Below, in pieces: positions 12,936 through 43,058 of a stretch of DNA of 64,000 nucleotides. This stretch comes from Candidatus Sysuiplasma superficiale (GTDB taxonomy: Archaea; Thermoplasmatota; Thermoplasmata; Sysuiplasmatales; Sysuiplasmataceae): the NCBI GenBank assembly GCA_019720975.1, contig JAGVSJ010000009.1, positions 4,065 through 68,064 on the forward strand, in the 5' to 3' direction. Below the pieces are notes generated by a model, which saw only the letters and a program-made list of their open reading frames with translations, was not told the DNA's origin and ran no database searches. The position numbers were made by a program, and so were the translations under genes. Each line of letters opens with the position of its first letter. Within the stretch, counting starts at the first letter, position 1.

Positions 12936-13613
12936 TCATTCTGGTGGTGCCGCCTCGATCTGGCGTACCATTCCCTGCTTCTTCCGCGATATGCGTATGA
13001 ACTGAAAGAACACGCCAATAACTATTATGGCAAACGCAATCAGTGTGGATAACTGGCCCACCCTGAAAACTGTAAGCCCATAGTCAACGAGTATACCTCC
13101 AGCAACAGCTGTGAAAACGACGATAAGATCCTTGAAATAGATGATACATATGACAAACACTGCAAGTCCAACCACCAGTGCAACAATAAACGGAACTGTG
13201 GAGGACTGGGCTGATCTACCGAGAACACCGCCTTTTATGCCAAGGAGTATGAGTGTCCCGACCATGGCGAAATATGCAATTAACAGCGATATTCCTATTT
13301 CAGCAATATAGTAGAAAAGTATTCCTCCCACTATGGCACCTATCAACCCGAGTATCAGACCGCCTACAAAACCTGCAAAAGCTGTTCCGAATGCAAGCCC
13401 AAGTGAGGCACCAAGTATGACACCAATGAGAGATGTTAGTATTTTCCACATCTCCTCACCTGCAAAAGCAAGAAGCAGACCTATCGCAATCGATATGAAG
13501 CCTATGTAAGGGTACACAGTTCTGGGAATGGAAGGTATAATCGCGTACATGTGAGAGAGCATTGTCAGTGATTCAACACACTGAGTATAATTACTTTCAC
13601 TAACCGGTATCAC
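12936..13613 (-). CDS. glycine-zipper-rich polytopic membrane protein
   Basis: 225-aa ORF with 5-6 hydrophobic, G/A-rich helices. No family recognised. Confidence 0.45.
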   Translation of the reverse strand: MIPVSESNYTQCVESLTMLSHMYAIIPSIPRTVYPYIGFISIAIGLLLAFAGEEMWKILTSLIGVILGASLGLAFGTAFAGFVGGLILGLIGAIVGGILFYYIAEIGISLLIAYFAMVGTLILLGIKGGVLGRSAQSSTVPFIVALVVGLAVFVICIIYFKDLIVVFTAVAGGILVDYGLTVFRVGQLSTLIAFAIIVIGVFFQFIRISRKKQGMVRQIEAAPPE

Positions 13614-33843: not shown

Positions 33844-34431
33844 GTGGCCAACAAGAGGAAGAGAAAGTTTCCGATAGGCATAGGCGACACGCTGCTTTCC
33901 GAAGACAGGATGAGGATGATAGATCCAAGGACGGTCCTCAGATCATTTGGTGTGAGAGAGGGGGTTACATTGATTGATGTTGGATGCGGGCCAGGTGCAT
34001 TTCTGGAGGCTGCATCGGAGAGTGTTGGTGAGAACGGAACAGTCATAGCTGTGGATATACAGGAACCTTTCATCAATATGGCAAGAAGACTGGCCGAAGA
34101 AAAGGGTCTCAGGAACATAAGATTCATTGTCTCTAAGGAAAGCAGCATACCAGTAGAAAGTGGTAGTGCTGATGTCGCACTAATCGTTACGAGCCTGCAT
34201 GAATTTGAGGGAGACGGAACGCTGAAGGAGGTTCGCAGGATCCTCAGGAAGGGTGGAAAGCTTGCTGTGGTAGAATGGGAAAAGATGAAATCACCAATAG
34301 GGCCGCCCCTTGCTGAACGCCTTTCACAGGAGGAGGCTGAGAAAATGCTGTCTGAATGCAACTTTGCAGTGGAAAAGATATTTCAGGCAGGCAAGTACCA
34401 CTACGGGATAGAGGCGAAGAAGTTAAAATGA
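33844..34431 (+). CDS. class I SAM-dependent methyltransferase
   Basis: Motif I LIDVGCGPGAF and motif post-II LRKGGKLAVVEW. Confidence 0.75.
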   Translation: MANKRKRKFPIGIGDTLLSEDRMRMIDPRTVLRSFGVREGVTLIDVGCGPGAFLEAASESVGENGTVIAVDIQEPFINMARRLAEEKGLRNIRFIVSKESSIPVESGSADVALIVTSLHEFEGDGTLKEVRRILRKGGKLAVVEWEKMKSPIGPPLAERLSQEEAEKMLSECNFAVEKIFQAGKYHYGIEAKKLK

Positions 34432-34634
34432 AGGGAACAGGCACTGGGGATCGTGACTCGCATTCTCTTGAAGTGGAAGCTGACGGATCAGCATTCCTGC
34501 CTGCTCTTGTCTTTACCCCCTTCGATGGCGTCGTGACAGTGTTGGTGATCCTTGTTCTCCTGCTCCTGTTCATCATCTGGAGGAGGCGGAACAGAAGAAA
34601 GAATAGGGGGAATTCTGTCTATCTCTTCCATTAG
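34428..34634 (+). CDS. small single-TM protein
   Basis: ATG 34428 overlaps the methyltransferase stop (ATGA). 68 aa with one strongly hydrophobic helix followed by RRRNRRKNR. Confidence 0.3.
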   Translation: MKGTGTGDRDSHSLEVEADGSAFLPALVFTPFDGVVTVLVILVLLLLFIIWRRRNRRKNRGNSVYLFH

Positions 34635-35065
34635 AGCTGTGTGCCGTCTGAAAGCTCTTCCTGAATGAACTTGCCGCTGTCTGATAGGCGCCATGAACGC
34701 ATGCCAGCAGGTGAACCGTTCATAACACTGATTATGAAATATGAGTAGCCGGGCCAAGCGTTGTTTCTGTCAAACTCCGAGGGTACCGGCGGATGATCCG
34801 GATGGGAGTGGTAGTAGCCGAGTATCTTTTTGCCTGCGGAGTGTACTGACTGCTCCATTTTCAATATCTCACGGGGTTCAATGGTGTAGCGCGTTCTCTT
34901 TGAATTCGCAGCTGCATTCACGGCACGCACCGCGTCGCTGACAGTCCTGATGCCTCTTTTGGCATCCTCTGTTCCGATAAGGAAACCGCAGCATTCCTCG
35001 GGATATGTTTCGGATGCATGAACAATGATCTCCTTCAGGATGCTGGATTGCATTTGAAGCGACAT
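34631..35065 (-). CDS. JAMM/MPN+ metalloprotease (Mec+/desampylase-like)
   Basis: Complete JAMM signature: EECCG (catalytic Glu) and HSHPDHPPVPSEFD (HxH-x7-S-xx-D). It is the last gene of the suf/Ubl operon. Confidence 0.85.
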   Translation of the reverse strand: MSLQMQSSILKEIIVHASETYPEECCGFLIGTEDAKRGIRTVSDAVRAVNAAANSKRTRYTIEPREILKMEQSVHSAGKKILGYYHSHPDHPPVPSEFDRNNAWPGYSYFIISVMNGSPAGMRSWRLSDSGKFIQEELSDGTQL

Positions 35066-35100: not shown

Positions 35101-36348
35101 TCAGGCAAATACCTTTCTGACCTCATCGAGTGCGTCGATAAGGGCATCAACATCCCTCTTCCCGTTGTAAAGATAGAAGGATGCGCGCGACGCTGATGAT
35201 ATTCCAAGCCTTTCCATCAGTGGTTGGGCACAGTGGTGTCCTGACCTGATGGAAACGCCCCTTCTTCCCAGTATTTCGGCAGTGTCATGCCCATGGACCC
35301 CTTTCAGGTTGAAGGCGATTACACCGCTCCTCTGCTCGATATCGTGTGGCCCGTATATCTCTATGTCATCTGATTCACCCAGGCGCGACAGCGCGTAGGA
35401 AATAAGATGCCTGTCGTATCTTTCAACATTCTCCATTCCAATGGCAGAGAGATAGTCCACCGCAGCCCCCAGACCGATTGCCCCTATTATGTTTGGCGTC
35501 CCGGCTTCGAATTTATATGGCGGCACATTCCACGTGCATCCGTTCTGGTGAACCTCACTTATCATTTCGCCGCCTCCAAGTGCCGGTTCAATCTTTCTGA
35601 GGAGATCGTACCTTCCATAAAGTGCACCAATGCCTGTAGGTGCCAGCATTTTGTGGCCCGAAAGTGCAAAGAAATCGCAGCCGATCTTCCTGACATCTAC
35701 TGGTATGTGTGGTGCCGACTGTGCTCCGTCCACAATCAGGAGGGATGAATTGTCATGAGCCATATCGGCTATTTCCCTTACCGGATTTATTGTACCGAGA
35801 ACGTTGGAAACATGAGCGACTGAAACTATCTTTGTCCTCCCCGTAAGCTTTGTGGCAAAATCGTCCATGTCAATCTGCCCCTCACTGTCGATATCTGCAA
35901 ACTTAAGCCTCACTCCCTTCCAAGAGAGCATCTGCCATGGGACAACGTTTGAATGATGTTCCATTACTGTGGTGAGCACCTCATCCCCCGGCTTGAGCTG
36001 CCAGATGCCCAGGCTCAGTGCAAGCACATTCAGCGCCTCTGTGGTGCCACGAAGGAATACGATCTCATCGGCAGATTCTGAATTGATGAAGCCCGCAACT
36101 TTCTTTCTCGCCCCTTCATAACGCTCGGTTGCATCCTCGCTGAGGGGGTAAATGCCGCGGTGGACATTCGCATTGTATTTTCTTTCAAACTCGCAAACAG
36201 CATCAATGACCTGCCTGGGCTTCTGGCTGGTGGCCGCACTGTCAAGATACACCAGTCCCTCCTTTCTCTCTGAAAAGATGGGGAAATCCGCCGCAAGCGG
36301 CGAAATGTCAGGCAGCGCATCAGGAAGCTTGGTGACCACTCGCATCAC
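35101..36348 (-). CDS. sufS: cysteine desulfurase, SufS type (class II)
   Basis: SGHKMLAPTGIGALYG (PLP Lys), RSGHHCAQPL (active-site Cys loop) and the overall SufS/CsdA pattern. Confidence 0.92.
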   Translation of the reverse strand: MMRVVTKLPDALPDISPLAADFPIFSERKEGLVYLDSAATSQKPRQVIDAVCEFERKYNANVHRGIYPLSEDATERYEGARKKVAGFINSESADEIVFLRGTTEALNVLALSLGIWQLKPGDEVLTTVMEHHSNVVPWQMLSWKGVRLKFADIDSEGQIDMDDFATKLTGRTKIVSVAHVSNVLGTINPVREIADMAHDNSSLLIVDGAQSAPHIPVDVRKIGCDFFALSGHKMLAPTGIGALYGRYDLLRKIEPALGGGEMISEVHQNGCTWNVPPYKFEAGTPNIIGAIGLGAAVDYLSAIGMENVERYDRHLISYALSRLGESDDIEIYGPHDIEQRSGVIAFNLKGVHGHDTAEILGRRGVSIRSGHHCAQPLMERLGISSASRASFYLYNGKRDVDALIDALDEVRKVFA

Positions 36349-36650
36349 ACATCCACATAAATTTCGTTGCCATCAACCCTTACACTGTATGTCCTGAGAG
36401 GTTCGGTTGCAGGAGGGTTTTCAACCTCGCCAGTCTCCACATTGAATCTGGAAAGATGAAGAGGACACACTATTGAATTGCCTGAGAGTATCCCTCTTGA
36501 AAGGTCGGCGTCCTCATGCGTGCAGGTCGAATCCAGCGCATGGAAGCTGTCACCGAGACGTATTATCATTATTTGGGAGCCGTCAATTTCAACCTTCCTC
36601 ACGTTGCCTGATGAGAAGTCTTCTGTCGAGGCAGCTCTCCTGAAGGTCAA
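36345..36650 (-). CDS. Rieske [2Fe-2S] ferredoxin-like protein
   Basis: CTHEDADL...CPLH (CxH...CxxH). TTG start 6 nt after the sufD stop. Its stop overlaps the sufS start. Confidence 0.85.
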   Translation of the reverse strand: MTFRRAASTEDFSSGNVRKVEIDGSQIMIIRLGDSFHALDSTCTHEDADLSRGILSGNSIVCPLHLSRFNVETGEVENPPATEPLRTYSVRVDGNEIYVDV

Positions 36651-36656
36651 GGATCA

Positions 36657-38099
36657 TCACCTGTACTTGTAGTGGCCTTCGAAGATATTCTCACCAGGGG
36701 ACTTTATCTGATCTTTGACATATTTTTCGAATTCGAGCTCATCGAGATGGCGCGACGACTGTATCGAAATCGCATTATTCCACTTGTCCTCTATCTGGAA
36801 GCGCAACTTGTCACGTACCGCATCTATTGGTATCCTTGAAATTACAGGATCGAAGAAACCAAGGACAAGGAGTTTTTCCGCATCGTTCCTTTCTATCCCT
36901 CTGGTCTGAAGGTAGTAAAGCTGCTGTTCATCCATCTGGGAAACGGAGGCTGAATGTGTTGCCTTCACACCGTTTGTGAGTATCTCCAGCCCGGGTATCG
37001 CATCGCATTTTGAGTCCCTGCTCAACAGCATCCCGTGTTCAGCAAGGTAAGCGCTGGTATTGGATGCCTTTTCGCCTATCCTTATCATTCCGCGCAGGAG
37101 TGCCCTCGATCTGTCGCGCAGAACGCTTCTGACAGTGACCCTTCCACTTGTAGACTCCACATTGTGGTGCAGGTCTGTGACAATGTCAAACTTCTGTTTG
37201 CCTCCCGAAAAGAGTATTTCGTAATCATCTGTGGAAGCTCCCTGGCCCTCAAAATCTGTGTCAGACCTTGCCCTTGTTATGTCACCACCCATATAGCTTG
37301 AGACCCAGTGCATCCTGCTCTCACGCATTGCAATGGCACGTTTGTTTGAAAGATAGACAGTCCCAGCCGAGAGATTCTCAAGTGAAGCGTGATGCAGTTC
37401 AGCACCATGGGAAAGGTGGACGTCGGTTACGGAAGAGTAAAGGGACAGGCCGCTGACACCCTCCTCAGAATATATCTCTTCGATGACATTCGCGCTGCTT
37501 CCTTCCTCCAGACGAACTATGTTCTGGTGGAAGCCCGCCTTCCCCGCACCATTTTCTATGTATACCACATGAACTGGTGCTTCCAGATGCGTGTTTCTTG
37601 GAACATAGAGGAAATAGCCTGAGGTGAAGAAGGCGTTGTTCAGTGCAACGTATATGTCATCCTCCGGCTTAAGGCCCTTAAGCCTGAAGGATTCTTCTGC
37701 AATGTCGGCATGTTTTGCCACAGCATCCTTCATCTCCTCAAAAATGACGCCGCGTGGAAGAGATTTTGACCGGTAGAACGCACCACCATAGTGTATCATG
37801 AAGATACTCTTTCCCTCCTCACCCGCAAGCTCCACATACCTTTCCGGCACGGCTGGTAACTCCGAAGGCACTTTCGCGGGCGTGAGTCCGGAGGCGTCGA
37901 ATCTGGTAAGTGACTCATACTTTGTGTACAGTGGATTCGGTTCAGGCCTTGACTGGCGGAAAACAGCAAGGGAGCGTCTCCTGTACTCAGAAAGCCATGC
38001 GGGTTCCATGTTGAATGAGGGGAGCTCGGATTCTCCCGTGTTCATTATGTCCTGTGTCATTGCTGTCATGGCAGACTGGCACCTCCTTCGAAATTTCAC
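36657..38099 (-). CDS. sufD: Fe-S cluster assembly protein SufD
   Basis: SufB/SufD beta-helix family, lacking the SufB N-terminal Cys region. The GTG start overlaps the sufB stop (GTGA). Confidence 0.85.
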
Positions 38100-39502
38100 C
38101 CTACTGAACCTGTCATCTCAAGCTGTATAAGCCTATTCAGCTCCACCGCGTACTCCATTGGCAATTCCTTCGAGAAGACATCGAGAAAACCCATGACTAT
38201 CATGTTGAGAGCGTCTGCTTCCGTGAGTCCCCTTGACATGAGGTAGAAAAGCTGTTCCTCGCTTATCTTGCCTACAGTTGCCTCATGCGTGGTTGAGGCT
38301 GTCTCCTCATTGATTGTATTGTACGGATAAGTGTCGGTCCTCGACTTTTCATCAAGCAGGAGGGCGTCGCACCTAACACTGCTCTTTGAGTTGTGTGCAC
38401 CTTTTTCAATGTGCAGAAGGCCACGGTAGGTAGTCCTGCCTCCATCCTTGCTCACGCTCTTCGATGTTATTCTCGATGTTGTTTCAGGCGCAAAATGCAG
38501 TATCTTCGCGCCTGCATCCTGATGCTGCCCTCTACCTGCAAATGCAATTGAAATGACCTCACCCTTGGCTCTCGGTCCGAGGAGATACACGGAAGGGTAT
38601 TTCATTGTCAGCTTCGAACCGATGTTGCCATCTATCCACTCCACCGTTGCATCTTCGTGTGCGAACGCCCTCTTTGTTACCAGGTTATAGACATTGTTTG
38701 ACCAGTTCTGAATGGTTGTGTAGCGAACATACGCTCCCTTCTTCGCTATAATCTCCACAACAGCAGAGTGCAGTGAGTCCTTCGAATAGATGGGTGCGGT
38801 GCACCCTTCGATGTAATGTATCCGACTGTTCTTCTCCGCAACTATCAGTGTCCTCTCGAACTGACCTACACTCTTGGCATTGATTCTGAAATAGGCCTGG
38901 AGAGGGATGTCAACCTCAACACCTTCCGGGACGTAGATGAAGCTCCCACCGCTCCAGACGGCGCTGTTTAGTGCTGCGAATTTGTTGTCCTCGGGCGGAA
39001 TAACAGTGCCGAAATGCTCTCTGAATATGTCAGGGTATTCCTTGAGACCTTCATCCGTCCCAAGGAATATGACGCCCTTCTTGCTGAGATCCTCTCTTAT
39101 CTTATGATATACCACTTCGCTGTCATACTGTGCCCCGACTCCGCCGAGGAATTTCTTCTCTGCCTCAGGTATACCCAGCTTGTCGAATGTCCTCTTGACA
39201 TAGTCAGGAACATCCTCCCAGCTGTCGCTGTTCTTGCCTGAAGGGGCCATGTAATAGTAAATGTCATTGAAATCAATTTCCTTCAGATCGCTTCCCCATG
39301 GCGGAAGAGGCTTCCTGTTGAAAATATCCAGCGATCGGAGTCTGAAATCCCTCATCCACTCCGGTTCCTTCTTGTATCTGGATATGGCTTCCACAACATC
39401 TCTGCTGAGCCCTTTCTGTGTCTGAAACACGTATTTGGCATCCTCATCGTAGAAGCCATACCTGCTGTAGTCACGGTCTATTCCCTGTTCATTCATCACC
39501 AT
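38096..39502 (-). CDS. sufB: Fe-S cluster assembly scaffold SufB
   Basis: Strong SufB pattern ([34 protein letters not shown]...[27 protein letters not shown]). The ORF is open to 39523. ATG 39502 is preceded by AGAGGAAGTGAT. Confidence 0.93.
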
Positions 39503-39553
39503 TTTATCACTTCCTCTTAACATTCATCAAATAGTTCACCTTCATCATTGAAA

Positions 39554-40975
39554 TCAGTAGCGCGGCATTGATGCGTCGACCTTCTCGGCCCATGCATTTA
39601 TACCTCCCTTCAGATTCTTGACCTTTCTGAAGCCTATGTCCTTCAGAAAATTCACGGCATATGCGCTTCTCTGGCCGACCTTGCAGTAGAGTACTATCTC
39701 GTCTGCGGTGTTGAGTTCGTTCACTCTTGCCGGTATATCATTCAGGGGTATCAGCCTGGCTCCCTCTATCCTGCATATGTCCCATTCCTGCGGTTCACGG
39801 ACATCCACCAAAACGATGTTCTCCCCGCTCTTCAGGCGTTTTGCCAGTTCCTCCGCGGTTATTGAGTTCTCATCGTTCTCCCTTTCCGGAGTTATTCCGC
39901 AGAACTGCTCGTAATCAATCAGTTCATGTATTGTCGGCTTCGTGCCACACACTGGGCAGTCAGGATTCTTGCGGAGCTTGAGCTCCTTGAAGCGCATCTT
40001 CATAGCATCGAAGAGCAGCAGCCTCCCTATCAGCGGTTCACCTTCACCGAGTATGAGCTTTATTGCCTCCATTGCCTGCAGTGTGCCGATGGTGCCGGGC
40101 AGTACGCCGACAACACCTCCCTCAGCACACGAAGGCACAAGCCCCGGCGGTGGCGGATTCTCGTAAAGGCACCTGTAGCAGGGCCCTCTCTTTGCGTCAA
40201 AGACAGAAACCTGGCCCTCAAAACGGTATATTGAGCCGTAAACGTTCGGTTTACCCAGCAGGACACATGCATCGTTCACAAGATAGCGTGTCGGGAAATT
40301 GTCTGTTCCGTCAATCACTATATCATACTGTCTTATGATGTCAAGTGCGTTTTCAGATGTCAGCCTGGTTTCGTGCTTGACAACCTGTATGTTGTGGTTT
40401 ATCTCTTTGATCTTCTCTTCTGCAGAATCTATCTTTTTTCTCCCGACGTCCTTCTGCGAATGAATGATCTGCCTCTGCAGGTTGCTGAAATCAACGGTAT
40501 CGAAATCGACTATGCCGAGTGTGCCCACGCCTGCTGCTGCAAGGTAAAGCAGAAGGGGTGAACCCAGTCCGCCTGCTCCAATTACGAGCACTTTCGCCTT
40601 TCTAAGTTTCAGTTGCCCTCCAAGGCCGACCTCAGGAAGCAGGAGATGCCTGCTGTAGCGCTGTATGTCTTCATATGTGAAATCATTTTCAAGGGTGCTC
40701 GAACCGCCCGCAATGGAGGGTATTATTGATATCACATCCCCCTCCTTTACGGCCGTCTTTTCCCTCTCAAGGTACCGTATATCCTCCTCGTTCAGGTACA
40801 CATTCACAAAATTCCTCATTTTTCCGTTTTCATCAAACAGATGGCGCTTCAGCTGAACGCTTGTATCCGCCACTTTGCGCAGGACTTCGTCTACAGATTC
40901 GCCATCAACAACAATCGTATCGCTGTTTCCGACGTATTGTCTAAGGGGTGTCGGTATCATCACCTTAACTTTCAC
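39554..40975 (-). CDS. fusion protein: MoaD/CysO-like beta-grasp (ends ...IPSIAGG) + MoeB/ThiF-type E1 adenylyltransferase + rhodanese
   Basis: Residues 1-91 (VKVKVMIPTPLRQYVG...VNVYLNEEDI...KEGDVISIIPSIAGG) fit the archaeal MoaD/SAMP/CysO pattern with a di-glycine at 90-91 (codons 40703-40708). Next comes RYSRHLLLPEVG, VLVIGAGGLGS, CYRC...SCAEGGVVG...CPVCG (E1), followed by the rhodanese loop CKVGQRS. GTG 40975 is preceded by GGGAGG at 7-nt spacing and overlaps the cysM stop (GTGA). The ORF-track extension to 41077 runs through cysM and is discounted. Confidence 0.85.
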   Translation of the reverse strand: MKVKVMIPTPLRQYVGNSDTIVVDGESVDEVLRKVADTSVQLKRHLFDENGKMRNFVNVYLNEEDIRYLEREKTAVKEGDVISIIPSIAGGSSTLENDFTYEDIQRYSRHLLLPEVGLGGQLKLRKAKVLVIGAGGLGSPLLLYLAAAGVGTLGIVDFDTVDFSNLQRQIIHSQKDVGRKKIDSAEEKIKEINHNIQVVKHETRLTSENALDIIRQYDIVIDGTDNFPTRYLVNDACVLLGKPNVYGSIYRFEGQVSVFDAKRGPCYRCLYENPPPPGLVPSCAEGGVVGVLPGTIGTLQAMEAIKLILGEGEPLIGRLLLFDAMKMRFKELKLRKNPDCPVCGTKPTIHELIDYEQFCGITPERENDENSITAEELAKRLKSGENIVLVDVREPQEWDICRIEGARLIPLNDIPARVNELNTADEIVLYCKVGQRSAYAVNFLKDIGFRKVKNLKGGINAWAEKVDASMPRY

Positions 40976-41904
40976 AGATTCGCCTCCCAAAACCTCTCTC
41001 CAAGGTAGCGCTGCCCACTGTCGGGGAAAACAGTGACCACACTGCACTTTCCCTCCCTCCTGAAAATATCTTCGCAAGCCTTCAATGCGGCTCCGGAACT
41101 CACGCCGAGGAGCAGCCCTTCCTTCCTTGCAGCCGTGATCACCATTCTCTGTGCATCCTCTGTCTTCACATAGATGTGCTCGTCCGCAAGCGTCTCATCG
41201 TAAATGCCGGGCCTTATTGATGAATCCATTCTCTTCAGTCCCTCTATGCCGTGAAGAGGGCTGTCGGGCTCAACAGCCACTGCAGTCAGAGAGGGGATCT
41301 TCTCCTTGAGAAATTTTGCTGTGCCTGTGAACGTGCCTCCTGTTCCAACACCGGCAACGAAATAGTCTATTTTGCCACCGGTCTGCCTGAGTATTTCCTG
41401 ACCTGTTCCGTCATAATGTGCCCTCCAGTTGCTGCTGTTGTTGTATTGGTCTGCATAGTAGTACATGCCCGGATTTTCATCATCAAGCTTTTTCGCTAGT
41501 CTCTGAGCGCCATCGGTCCCCTCCATCGGATCACTGAGAACAACCTCTGCGCCGTACGCCCTCAGCATTTCAAGCTTTTCCTTGCCTATGTTTCGCGGAA
41601 CCACGATGCAGGACCTTATGCCCTTTACCGCACAGATCATCGCGTATGCAATGCCCGTGTTCCCGGATGATGCATCCAGCAAAATCTTCCCGTCCGAAAG
41701 GGAGCCTCTGCGCAGTGCATCTTCGATTATCCTGAGCGCTGCCCTATCCTTCACACTGCCACCGGGATTGAACCATTCTGCCTTTGCATAGAGCTCAGCT
41801 CCGCCCTGCAGTTCCATAATCCTCCCGAGTCTGAGAAGCGGTGTGTTACCTATCTTCGAGAGTATGTCTTCGCCGTACTGCGACTTCAGTTCAGTGCATA
41901 TCAT
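40972..41904 (-). CDS. cysM: CysM-type cysteine synthase / O-phosphoserine sulfhydrylase (PLP fold type II)
   Basis: GNTPLL, PGGSVKDR (PLP Lys), SSGNTG and GVGTGGTFTG. The region QYNNSSNWRAHYDGTGQEI and the loop VEPDSPLHGIEGLKRM align by eye with M. tuberculosis CysM rather than CysK. Confidence 0.8.
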   Translation of the reverse strand: MICTELKSQYGEDILSKIGNTPLLRLGRIMELQGGAELYAKAEWFNPGGSVKDRAALRIIEDALRRGSLSDGKILLDASSGNTGIAYAMICAVKGIRSCIVVPRNIGKEKLEMLRAYGAEVVLSDPMEGTDGAQRLAKKLDDENPGMYYYADQYNNSSNWRAHYDGTGQEILRQTGGKIDYFVAGVGTGGTFTGTAKFLKEKIPSLTAVAVEPDSPLHGIEGLKRMDSSIRPGIYDETLADEHIYVKTEDAQRMVITAARKEGLLLGVSSGAALKACEDIFRREGKCSVVTVFPDSGQRYLGERFWEANL

Positions 41905-42280
41905 TTTTCACGCCTCCGGCAGAGACCGTCTCCTGGAGTGTTTTGAGCGAAAGAGTAGCGCATTTCATCCTCACAGCACTGAGCGGTATATGGAGCATTT
42001 CCTTCACATAATCGGGTGAGAGCCTCTCTATTTCTTCCAACTTCATTCCCTTTATCCTGTCCGTGAGCATTGAAGCGGAGGCCTGGCTTATAGCACATCC
42101 GCGTCCGTCGAACGATACATCCTCGATTATGTCATTTTTTATCTTTAGGTAAATCGTTATGTCGTCACCGCACACAGGATTGTTTCCGTGCCCGAAGAGA
42201 TCGGGATGATCCATCGCCCCCTTATTGTGAGGGCTTTTGTAATGCTCGATTATTTCCTCCTGATAGATGTCGAATCCCAT
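41891..42280 (-). CDS. sufU: SufU/IscU-family (NifU N-terminal domain) sulfur-transfer/scaffold protein
   Basis: Three conserved Cys in NPVCGD, GCAIS and RMKCATLS. Lys rather than His precedes the third Cys, as in SufU. It lacks the long Bacillus SufU insertion. Confidence 0.8.
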   Translation of the reverse strand: MGFDIYQEEIIEHYKSPHNKGAMDHPDLFGHGNNPVCGDDITIYLKIKNDIIEDVSFDGRGCAISQASASMLTDRIKGMKLEEIERLSPDYVKEMLHIPLSAVRMKCATLSLKTLQETVSAGGVKNDMH

Positions 42281-42293
42281 TTTTACACTCCAT

Positions 42294-43058
42294 TCAGTTT
42301 GTCAACTCAGGTTCTCTTAGCCAGTCATATCCCTTCTCCTCAAGTTCCCTGGCGAGTTCCTTTCCTCCGCTCTTCACAATCCTTCCGTCAACCACGACAT
42401 GAACAAATTGCGGCGTGATGTACTGGAGAAGCCTCTGATAATGTGTGACAAGTATGAGGCCGATGTTCGGACCCGCCATCGAGTTTATTGCTGTTGCAAC
42501 TATCTTCAGGGAGTCAATATCCAGGCCGCTGTCTGTCTCGTCCAGTATACCGAACTTTGGCTGGAGTATGGCCATCTGCAGAACCTCAGCCCGTTTCTTT
42601 TCACCGCCGGAAAAGCCCTCATTGAGTGACCGGCCAATGAAATTTTCATCAATGCCGAGCTGATTGACCTTTTCTTTCAGAAGTTTGAAAAATTTAGTCG
42701 GGCTGAGAGGTGAGTTCGGATGTGAACTGTTGTACGCTATCCTGAGGAAATTGCCCAGTCTTACGCCTGGTACCTCTACAGGGTACTGAAAGCCCAAGAA
42801 AAGGCCCGCACGTGCCCTCTTGTCAGCTGTCAATGAGAGTACGTCCTGCCCATCAAGGAGCACCTGCCCTCCGGTGATCTGGTATTTGGGATGTCCCATG
42901 AGCGCATAGCTCATTGTGCTTTTTCCAGAACCGTTGGGGCCCATGATCGCATGGATTTCACCCTGCCTGACTGTGAGATTTATGCCCTTAAGTATCTGTT
43001 TGCCCTCTATACTTACCTTGAGATCTCTGATAACCAGTTCCGATGTCATTGTATTCAT
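42294..43058 (-). CDS. sufC: Fe-S cluster assembly ATPase SufC
   Basis: Walker A GPNGSGKST, signature FSGGEKKR, Walker B ILDETDSGLD and the SufC-typical HYQRLL. Confidence 0.93.
   Translation of the reverse strand: MNTMTSELVIRDLKVSIEGKQILKGINLTVRQGEIHAIMGPNGSGKSTMSYALMGHPKYQITGGQVLLDGQDVLSLTADKRARAGLFLGFQYPVEVPGVRLGNFLRIAYNSSHPNSPLSPTKFFKLLKEKVNQLGIDENFIGRSLNEGFSGGEKKRAEVLQMAILQPKFGILDETDSGLDIDSLKIVATAINSMAGPNIGLILVTHYQRLLQYITPQFVHVVVDGRIVKSGGKELARELEEKGYDWLREPELTN

Follow-up and report, generated by a model that had tools for sequence, protein, structure and literature searches.

A putative Mec+-type JAMM peptidase at the end of an archaeal suf cluster, probably acting twice on a CysO-like carrier made fused to its own E1 enzyme

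Why should a gene cluster for Fe-S assembly (suf) end with a peptidase of the kind that processes ubiquitin-like (Ubl) proteins? The question is raised by a 64,000-nucleotide (nt) stretch of contig JAGVSJ010000009.1 of the archaeon Candidatus Sysuiplasma superficiale (hereafter the window, with positions counted from its first letter), in which a gene for a stand-alone JAMM/MPN+ metalloprotease (34631-35065, minus strand; 144 amino acids, aa) follows the cysteine desulfurase gene sufS. The original prediction, made from the DNA alone, regarded it as the terminal gene of the suf operon and gave its product two jobs, namely release of a carrier from an E1 fusion and hydrolysis of a carrier-cysteine adduct or of carrier-protein conjugates. 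We consider it likely that the protein is a Mec+-type peptidase of the protein-thiocarboxylate cysteine pathway (CysM, CysO, MoeZ-rhodanese, and JAMM), whose genes are here interleaved with suf genes, and that it would cut after the carrier Gly-Gly in both jobs. The cysteine pathway itself is already known from Mycobacterium tuberculosis, and the window holds a variant of it. What is new here is that about three quarters of a widespread family produce the carrier as a fusion with E1, that the presence of JAMM tracks this fusion, and that the module is built into suf operons in Thermoplasmata.

In M. tuberculosis, MoeZ activates CysO, CysM joins the thiocarboxylate to O-phosphoserine, and Mec+ splits the adduct of CysO and cysteine by hydrolysis (PMC3227635). 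For the window, we propose a route of which every step is drawn from homology and comparative genomics. The carrier would be translated as part of a CysO~E1~rhodanese protein, and JAMM would hydrolyze the peptide bond after Gly91, exposing the Gly-Gly carboxylate; E1 would adenylate this carboxylate, and the persulfide of rhodanese Cys431 (or sulfide) would turn the adenylate into a thiocarboxylate. CysM would then add the thiocarboxylate to aminoacrylate derived from O-phosphoserine (or O-acetylserine), and an S-to-N acyl shift would give CysO-Gly-Gly-Cys, in which the same JAMM would hydrolyze the same kind of bond after Gly-Gly (GG) to yield free cysteine and recycled CysO. The released cysteine would feed SufS, SufU, and SufBCD, which are encoded around the module. 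As each job comes down to hydrolyzing the peptide bond that follows CysO-Gly-Gly, the two would amount to one reaction on two substrates.

The JAMM open reading frame (ORF) exists only on the minus strand, the plus strand of 34631-35065 having stop codons throughout, and GAGGG stands 10 nt upstream of its ATG. The public gene call (P0001) starts the gene at Met5 (140 aa), and the N termini of homologs (MTLH.P..LL..I) align with Met1. The translation contains EECCG (E24) and YYHSHPDHPPVPSEFD, that is, the complete JAMM/MPN+ motif H86-x-H88-x7-S96-xx-D99, with the segment H86-S-H88-PDHPPVP-S96-EF-D99. Locating the corresponding codons (E24, 34994-34996; H86, 34808-34810; H88, 34802-34804; S96, 34778-34780; D99, 34769-34771; all on the minus strand) verified their coordinates and bore out the catalytic signature read in the original prediction. 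Pfam recognizes the protein as PF14464 Prok-JAB (91.3 bits against a cut-off of 25; E = 4.8e-26) and PF01398 JAB (34.4 bits against a cut-off of 22.5; E = 2.1e-8), a profile match far beyond chance. At present the gene, like its relatives, is annotated as "M67 family metallopeptidase" or "proteasome lid subunit RPN8/RPN11".

The carrier on which this peptidase would act is encoded within the same cluster, in a single ORF that combines a CysO-like carrier, an E1 of the MoeB/MoeZ type, and a rhodanese (39554-40975, minus strand; Pfam ThiS, ThiF, and Rhodanese). The fusion has 473 aa counted from a GTG at 40975, with the carrier domain in residues 1-91 and the rhodanese cysteine at C431. Instead of stopping at its terminal …IIPSIAGG (Gly90-Gly91 codons, 40703-40708, minus strand), the carrier passes without a frame change into SSTLEND-FTYEDIQRYSRHLLL…, the beginning of E1. 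Among 28 fused homologs G90 and G91 are invariant, and the junction varies in both length and sequence. In an AlphaFold2 (AF2) model of the fusion, residues 88-96 have a predicted local distance difference test score (pLDDT) below 50 and form the main low-confidence stretch between two well-folded domains, which suggests a flexible GG junction; the scissile bond is predicted to lie directly after G91. The best PDB matches of the carrier domain are CysO proteins (4n6e_B, 4.5e-13; 3dwg_C from M. tuberculosis, 1.9e-12), whereas SAMP1 and MoaD are matched at about 1e-5 only.

How general the fusion is was assessed in two collections of relatives. Sample 1 comprised 80 genomic loci retrieved through JAMM and is rich in Thermoanaerobaculia; sample 2 comprised 79 loci (75 of them bacterial) retrieved through the fusion protein, independently of JAMM. 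In the 76 JAMM-linked loci of sample 1, the carrier is fused to E1 in 58, carries a short tail after GG in 16, and ends at GG in none; two carriers, L052 and L080, could not be classified (a possible frameshift and a contig end). The corresponding counts for the 79 loci of sample 2 are 60, 18, and 1. Fusion in frame to E1 is thus found in about 75% of the family, and the single carrier that ends at GG among the 155 loci (L278, AGG-stop) belongs to a genome without any JAMM. In about 75 actinobacterial CysO proteins, none is fused to E1, 57 end at GG, and a minority have a short tail.

Carriers that would have to be cut are accompanied by a JAMM. A family JAMM is present in the genome for all 60 fused carriers of sample 2 (adjacent in 57 and elsewhere in 3), and the three fused loci that lack an adjacent JAMM, which at first appeared to be exceptions, have their family JAMM elsewhere in each genome (100-139 bits). 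A further candidate exception, genome G032, was set aside because its contig probably ends before the expected position of the gene. Conversely, G139, G289, and G304 lack JAMM but have an adjacent carrier, and in each of these three genomes the carrier ORF ends exactly at GG-stop. Among 301 Thermoplasmata genomes, JAMM and the E1-rhodanese ortholog occur together in 61, E1 only in 5, JAMM only in 3, and neither in 232. The presence of JAMM tracks the predicted need for carrier processing.

One Thermoplasmata family (f10) offers a series of states of the module. In the first, cysM, JAMM, and a fused carrier stand together (G181, G187, and G259); in the second, the cysM of the module is lost and the fused carrier is kept with a divergent JAMM of intact motif (G082, G199, and G295); in the third, neither cysM nor JAMM is left, and the carrier has an ORF of its own that ends exactly at …AGG-stop or …SGG-stop (G139 and G289); and in the fourth, E1-rhodanese alone is left (G174 and G271). 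JAMM is therefore kept whenever the carrier needs cutting or the cysM partner is present, and is lost only when neither holds, a retention pattern that matches what the two jobs of the original prediction would entail. The comparative data accordingly favor carrier release from the E1 fusion, through the fusions and tails, the constant company of JAMM for fused carriers, the GG-stop carriers without it, and its retention after loss of cysM. They also favor hydrolysis of the carrier-cysteine adduct, through homology to Mec+, the nearly constant adjacency of cysM, and the retention of Mec+ beside cysM in actinobacteria, where most CysO proteins have a free GG.

Several further observations concern f10. 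The decay of the module is stepwise beside a divergent sufC-sufS-sufB (L205, L206, L210, L216, and L217), with loss of cysM, and then of cysM and JAMM together with un-fusing of the carrier. All f10 genomes that were checked have an unlinked CysK/CysM paralog, about 40% identical. Open frames of 450-500 aa that looked like a CysM-JAMM fusion proved on translation to be stop-free out-of-frame stretches in DNA of 68-71% G+C.

To what kind of JAMM does the protein belong? We fetched 80 actinobacterial cysO loci with a CysO sequence as query, and 75 of them read mec-cysO-cysM; the Mec+ proteins of these loci share 26-28% identity with the window JAMM (E = 1e-7 to 1e-11). Like it, Mec+ (Rv1334) stands alone, has about 140 aa, and carries this motif. 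The five catalytic residues, and another 14 beside them, do not vary among 80 family members and 20 actinobacterial Mec+. By these criteria of sequence, the window JAMM is best regarded as a distant member of the Mec+ kind. Its best solved relative by sequence is SRU_2040 of Salinibacter ruber (2kcq; 3.2e-24), and PfJAMM1 is matched at 3e-7 only. An AF2 model built on 47 homologs reached a pLDDT of 94, and Foldseek matched it with a probability of 1.00 to 2kks, 2kcq, PfJAMM1, Rpn11, BRCC36, and CSN5, the neighbors including PfJAMM1 bound to SAMP2 (template modeling scores, TM, of 0.79/0.87) and a Caldiarchaeum Rpn11 homolog bound to ubiquitin. In a tree of 147 columns, the window JAMM groups with other suf-linked Thermoplasmatota JAMMs (Shimodaira-Hasegawa-like approximate likelihood ratio test, SH-aLRT, 83); very long branches lead to the paralogs and to PfJAMM1. 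We sought a tree that would resolve Mec+, desampylases, and the window family from one another and had to give it up, as support was limited to the local clade. Because the deep nodes are open, we used gene context instead of phylogeny.

This context is nearly uniform. The order cysM-JAMM-cysO-E1/rhodanese occurs in 73 of the 80 loci of sample 1, mostly in Acidobacteriota; the suf-interleaved order of the window occurs in 4 (Thermoplasmatota loci), and in one more locus, from Thermoplasmata, suf genes precede sufS-cysM-JAMM-cysO-E1. In sample 2, JAMM is adjacent in 73 of 79 loci, and at least 67 of those 73 have cysM as well.

In the window, the co-directional genes on the minus strand are, in order, sufC, sufU, cysM, CysO~E1~rhodanese, sufB, sufD, a Rieske gene, sufS, and JAMM. 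The first, encoding the SufC ATPase (42294-43058; ABC_tran, 6.1e-21), shares 85% identity with the sufC at the head of this cluster in loci L002 and L003. It is followed by the gene for the sulfur-transfer protein SufU (41891-42280; TIGR01994, 119.8 bits against a cut-off of 92.5) and by that for a CysM-type cysteine synthase (40972-41904; PALP, 4e-70; TIGR01138 cysM, 329 bits, below the cut-off of 394). Beyond the fusion gene come sufB (38096-39523; SUFBD_core, 9.3e-88), sufD (36657-38099; SUFBD_core, 4.5e-64), and a Rieske [2Fe-2S] protein gene (36345-36650; Pfam Rieske, 5.8e-18), whose position between sufD and sufS is conserved in the family to which the window belongs (f1). SufS (35101-36348; TIGR01979, 554 bits against a cut-off of 475) probably consumes the cysteine that the module would produce. 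As originally predicted, JAMM lies 35 nt beyond the sufS stop (35101) on the same strand. Its 3' neighbor is a convergent methyltransferase gene (33844-34431, plus strand), so that the co-directional genes of the suf cluster end with JAMM, and its terminal place in the cluster stands as predicted.

A 92-aa ORF on the plus strand (34356-34634) follows the methyltransferase gene and converges on JAMM, overlapping it by 4 nt at the JAMM stop codon. The C-terminal half of this ORF consists of a hydrophobic helix followed by RRRNRRKNR, and it is possibly a real small membrane protein.

Linkage of the module to suf recurs in Thermoplasmata. In f1, nine of the ten genomes have Rieske-sufS-JAMM followed by the convergent methyltransferase gene, and the tenth probably loses JAMM at a contig end; families f22, f25, and f27 have sufS-sufU-cysM-JAMM-cysO~E1 in 11 of 12 loci, and in f10 the module is divergent to sufC-sufS-sufB. 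The module is therefore linked to suf in all five Thermoplasmata families that carry it, and the interleaved order of the window is a derived reshuffle. Sample 1, with its many Thermoanaerobaculia, had given the impression that bacteria have no such linkage, which the broader sample 2 overturned: 12 of its 75 bacterial loci (L229, L234, L235, L239, L246, L249, L255, L262, L272, L278, L293, and L294) have a SufS-like gene no more than 6 kb from the module, and some of them also have sufU or sufBCD. No paper in the literature we searched describes CysO and SufS linked in one operon. The module's repeated association with sufS, sufU, and sufBCD suggests co-regulation of the making of cysteine and of its use for Fe-S assembly; the thiocarboxylate route, like the SUF system, is thought to be oxidation resistant.

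The enzymes that would prepare and use the thiocarboxylate carry clues of their own. The E1 domain (within 39554-40975, minus strand) keeps both CxxC motifs, C266-x-x-C269 and C340-x-x-C343. Such motifs mark MoeB/MoeBR and are mostly absent from MoeZ/MoeZR (PMC3227635). The NCBIfam MoeB and MoeZ models score the domain almost equally, both below cut-off. "MoeZ" is therefore used here as a functional label, not as a family assignment. In CysM, K224-R225 aligns with Arg220 of mycobacterial CysM, which we take to be its O-phosphoserine-binding residue, and bacterial relatives have Lys-His in the alignment. Lys224-Arg225 would be compatible with O-phosphoserine and, together with a missing CysE, hints at that substrate. 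Searches of the window genome, a metagenome-assembled genome (MAG) that is 95% complete with 5.6% contamination, found no CysE, SepCysS, or second CysK/CysM. The module thus looks like the only recognizable cysteine synthase of this genome, feeding the adjacent SufS.

How does the module compare with systems already described? As in the Mec+ pathway, genes for a CysO-type carrier and a CysM-type synthase accompany that of the window JAMM, and the enzyme for carrier activation is a rhodanese-domain E1 (PMC3227635). The two differ in that sequence identity is only 26-28%, actinobacterial CysO mostly has a free GG with moeZ unlinked, and the carrier of the window is fused to E1, so that an extra maturation cut is needed, with the genes lying inside an archaeal suf operon. 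The four components also match an operon that Iyer, Burroughs and Aravind (2006) gave in row 4c of their Table 1 ("ThiS/MoaD + E1-rhodanese + JAB + cysteine synthase"), labeled uncharacterized and including S. ruber, the source of SRU_2040 (PMC1779556); the passages of that paper that we searched contain no mention of a carrier-E1 fusion or of suf linkage for this operon. A maturation cut has precedents. QbsD of thioquinolobactin biosynthesis trims the residues after the carrier GG, and CxnF of chuangxinmycin biosynthesis is proposed to do likewise (PMC5925218). In these systems, as is predicted for the window, a carrier made with residues after GG is cut by a clustered JAMM before adenylation (PMC5925218). 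Their extensions, however, are of 2-10 residues and they serve secondary metabolites, whereas the window family usually has a whole E1-rhodanese of 380 aa and cysteine as its product. DRJAMM and HvJAMM1, in turn, cut MoaD-MoaE fusions after GG (PMC8832034, PMC4443979). The window JAMM resembles HvJAMM1, PfJAMM1, and DRJAMM, which cut linear MoaD/SAMP1-MoaE fusions as well as SAMP conjugates, in its fold (TM of about 0.8 to PfJAMM1) and in its predicted linear-fusion cut after GG. It differs in falling below the cut-off of the desampylase family and in having E1, not MoaE, as fusion partner.

This resemblance raises the question of whether the protein might instead, as HvJAMM1 or PfJAMM1 do, work generally as a desampylase or deconjugase, which would mainly strip Ubl modifiers off many proteins and for which the suf/cys context would be incidental. 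Its best NCBIfam match is indeed the haloarchaeal desampylase model based on HvJAMM1 (NF041370; E = 7.2e-28), but at 97.1 bits it stays below the equivalog cut-off of 130. The fold matches PfJAMM1 bound to SAMP2, and E1-activated carriers can conjugate to proteins in archaea (PMC4443979), yet by sequence PfJAMM1 is far weaker than the cysM-operon type 2kcq. The window genome has three JAMMs, and general Ubl deconjugation therefore does not need this one, the more so as one of the other two lies inside its own E1-Ubl-E2-JAMM operon. With the near-universal linkage to cysM and cysO and the loss of JAMM where a free-GG carrier is left without cysM, we regard a general deconjugase as quite improbable. 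It is improbable, too, that the enzyme has only one of the two jobs, either as a maturation protease whose adduct is resolved by another enzyme or as an adduct hydrolase beside a fused domain that is never cut and is not the working carrier. Iyer et al. suggested that certain ThiF-fused Ubl domains differ in role from the stand-alone carrier (PMC1779556); the window genome has three other ThiS/MoaD-family genes; and G082, G199, and G295 keep JAMM without the cysM of the module. Against this, the cluster has no other carrier gene, the fused domain keeps a CysO-like sequence with the invariant IPSIAGG, and actinobacteria retain Mec+ though their CysO already ends in GG. Separate specificities are also hard to picture for two substrates that share the scissile bond after the same CysO-GG.

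The place of JAMM at the end of the operon could alternatively reflect a SUF-specific role, such as processing or regulating a Suf protein. The gene directly follows sufS in nine f1 loci, and the module is suf-linked in every Thermoplasmata family that has it. Outside f1, however, JAMM sits between cysM and cysO and not beside suf genes, most bacterial relatives have no suf gene nearby, and the Suf proteins of the window show no recognizable Ubl or GG site, all of which makes such a role very improbable. The original prediction had named a RadC-like placement as its refuter, and a protein of JAMM fold that has nothing to do with Ubl processing, or an MPN- scaffold without activity, would share the fold and nothing more. 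Such a protein is scarcely credible and is contradicted by the data, since all catalytic residues are present and invariant. The Pfam scan (E ≤ 0.001) returned two JAB-family models and no RadC family, and among the top 50 structural matches of the predicted model, all of them Ubl- or ubiquitin-processing JAMMs, no RadC was seen.

Several points nevertheless weigh against a Mec+-type peptidase of a CysO-dependent cysteine pathway. What supports this assignment for the window JAMM and its close relatives is comparative genomics. Identity to characterized Mec+ is low, the JAMM tree supports the local clade only, and the nearest solved structure, SRU_2040, is a structural-genomics entry without an assigned function. 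The CysM of the window is closer to that of Escherichia coli (7e-66) than to that of M. tuberculosis (5e-49), so only gene context would point to its use of a thiocarboxylate, and in the window genome JAMM stands at a distance of four genes from cysM and cysO. As the genome is a MAG with some contamination, other cysteine routes may be present. Finally, the co-occurrence counts for Thermoplasmata ignore phylogeny, and the set of genomes without JAMM is small (n = 3).

Beyond the two jobs, the cleavage of carrier-protein conjugates, which the original prediction had also mentioned, is pure speculation. There is a slight possibility that the thiocarboxylate passes sulfur directly to the SUF machinery, bypassing free cysteine. 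We also entertain, as an unlikely idea, that the fusion is a pro-enzyme switch, in which the uncut CysO domain would idle E1-rhodanese or fix a strict 1:1 stoichiometry. JAMM, as the last gene of a SufR-controlled suf cluster in f1, would then permit cysteine to be made only while the entire machine for Fe-S assembly is in production, a prokaryotic counterpart of eukaryotic ubiquitin, which is made only as fusion precursors cut by deubiquitinases (DUBs).

The two other JAMMs of the genome lie outside the window. One belongs to a compact four-gene E1-Ubl-E2-JAMM operon (contig C79, 12360-14414, minus strand), which encodes an E1 (ThiF, 266 aa, 160 bits), a Ubl of 73 aa (13362-13583) that stops exactly after …LPDPEGG, an E2 (56.7 bits with Pfam UQ_con, whose cut-off is 27), and a JAMM of 183 aa that is JAB/Rpn11-like. 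No RING E3 was seen in this operon. Judged by its genes, it has the look of a eukaryote-like ubiquitylation cassette of Caldiarchaeum type, here carried by a Thermoplasmata MAG. The third JAMM (contig C35, 39896-40306, minus strand; 136 aa; Prok-JAB, 33.7 bits) has neighbors that resemble, by eye, an NAD kinase and an inositol-monophosphatase-like gene.

If the Mec+-type assignment is true, all de novo cysteine in this archaeon would pass through a Ubl carrier that is born fused to its own E1 and released by JAMM, and the same carrier route would likely operate in many Acidobacteriota, Gemmatimonadota, and other uncultured lineages that have the same fused gene. The JAMM genes of this family could then be named as CysO-processing/CysO-cysteine peptidases. 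A Ubl, its E1, and its DUB would form a simple three-part system that can be reconstituted and that bears on the origin of ubiquitin-type precursor processing.

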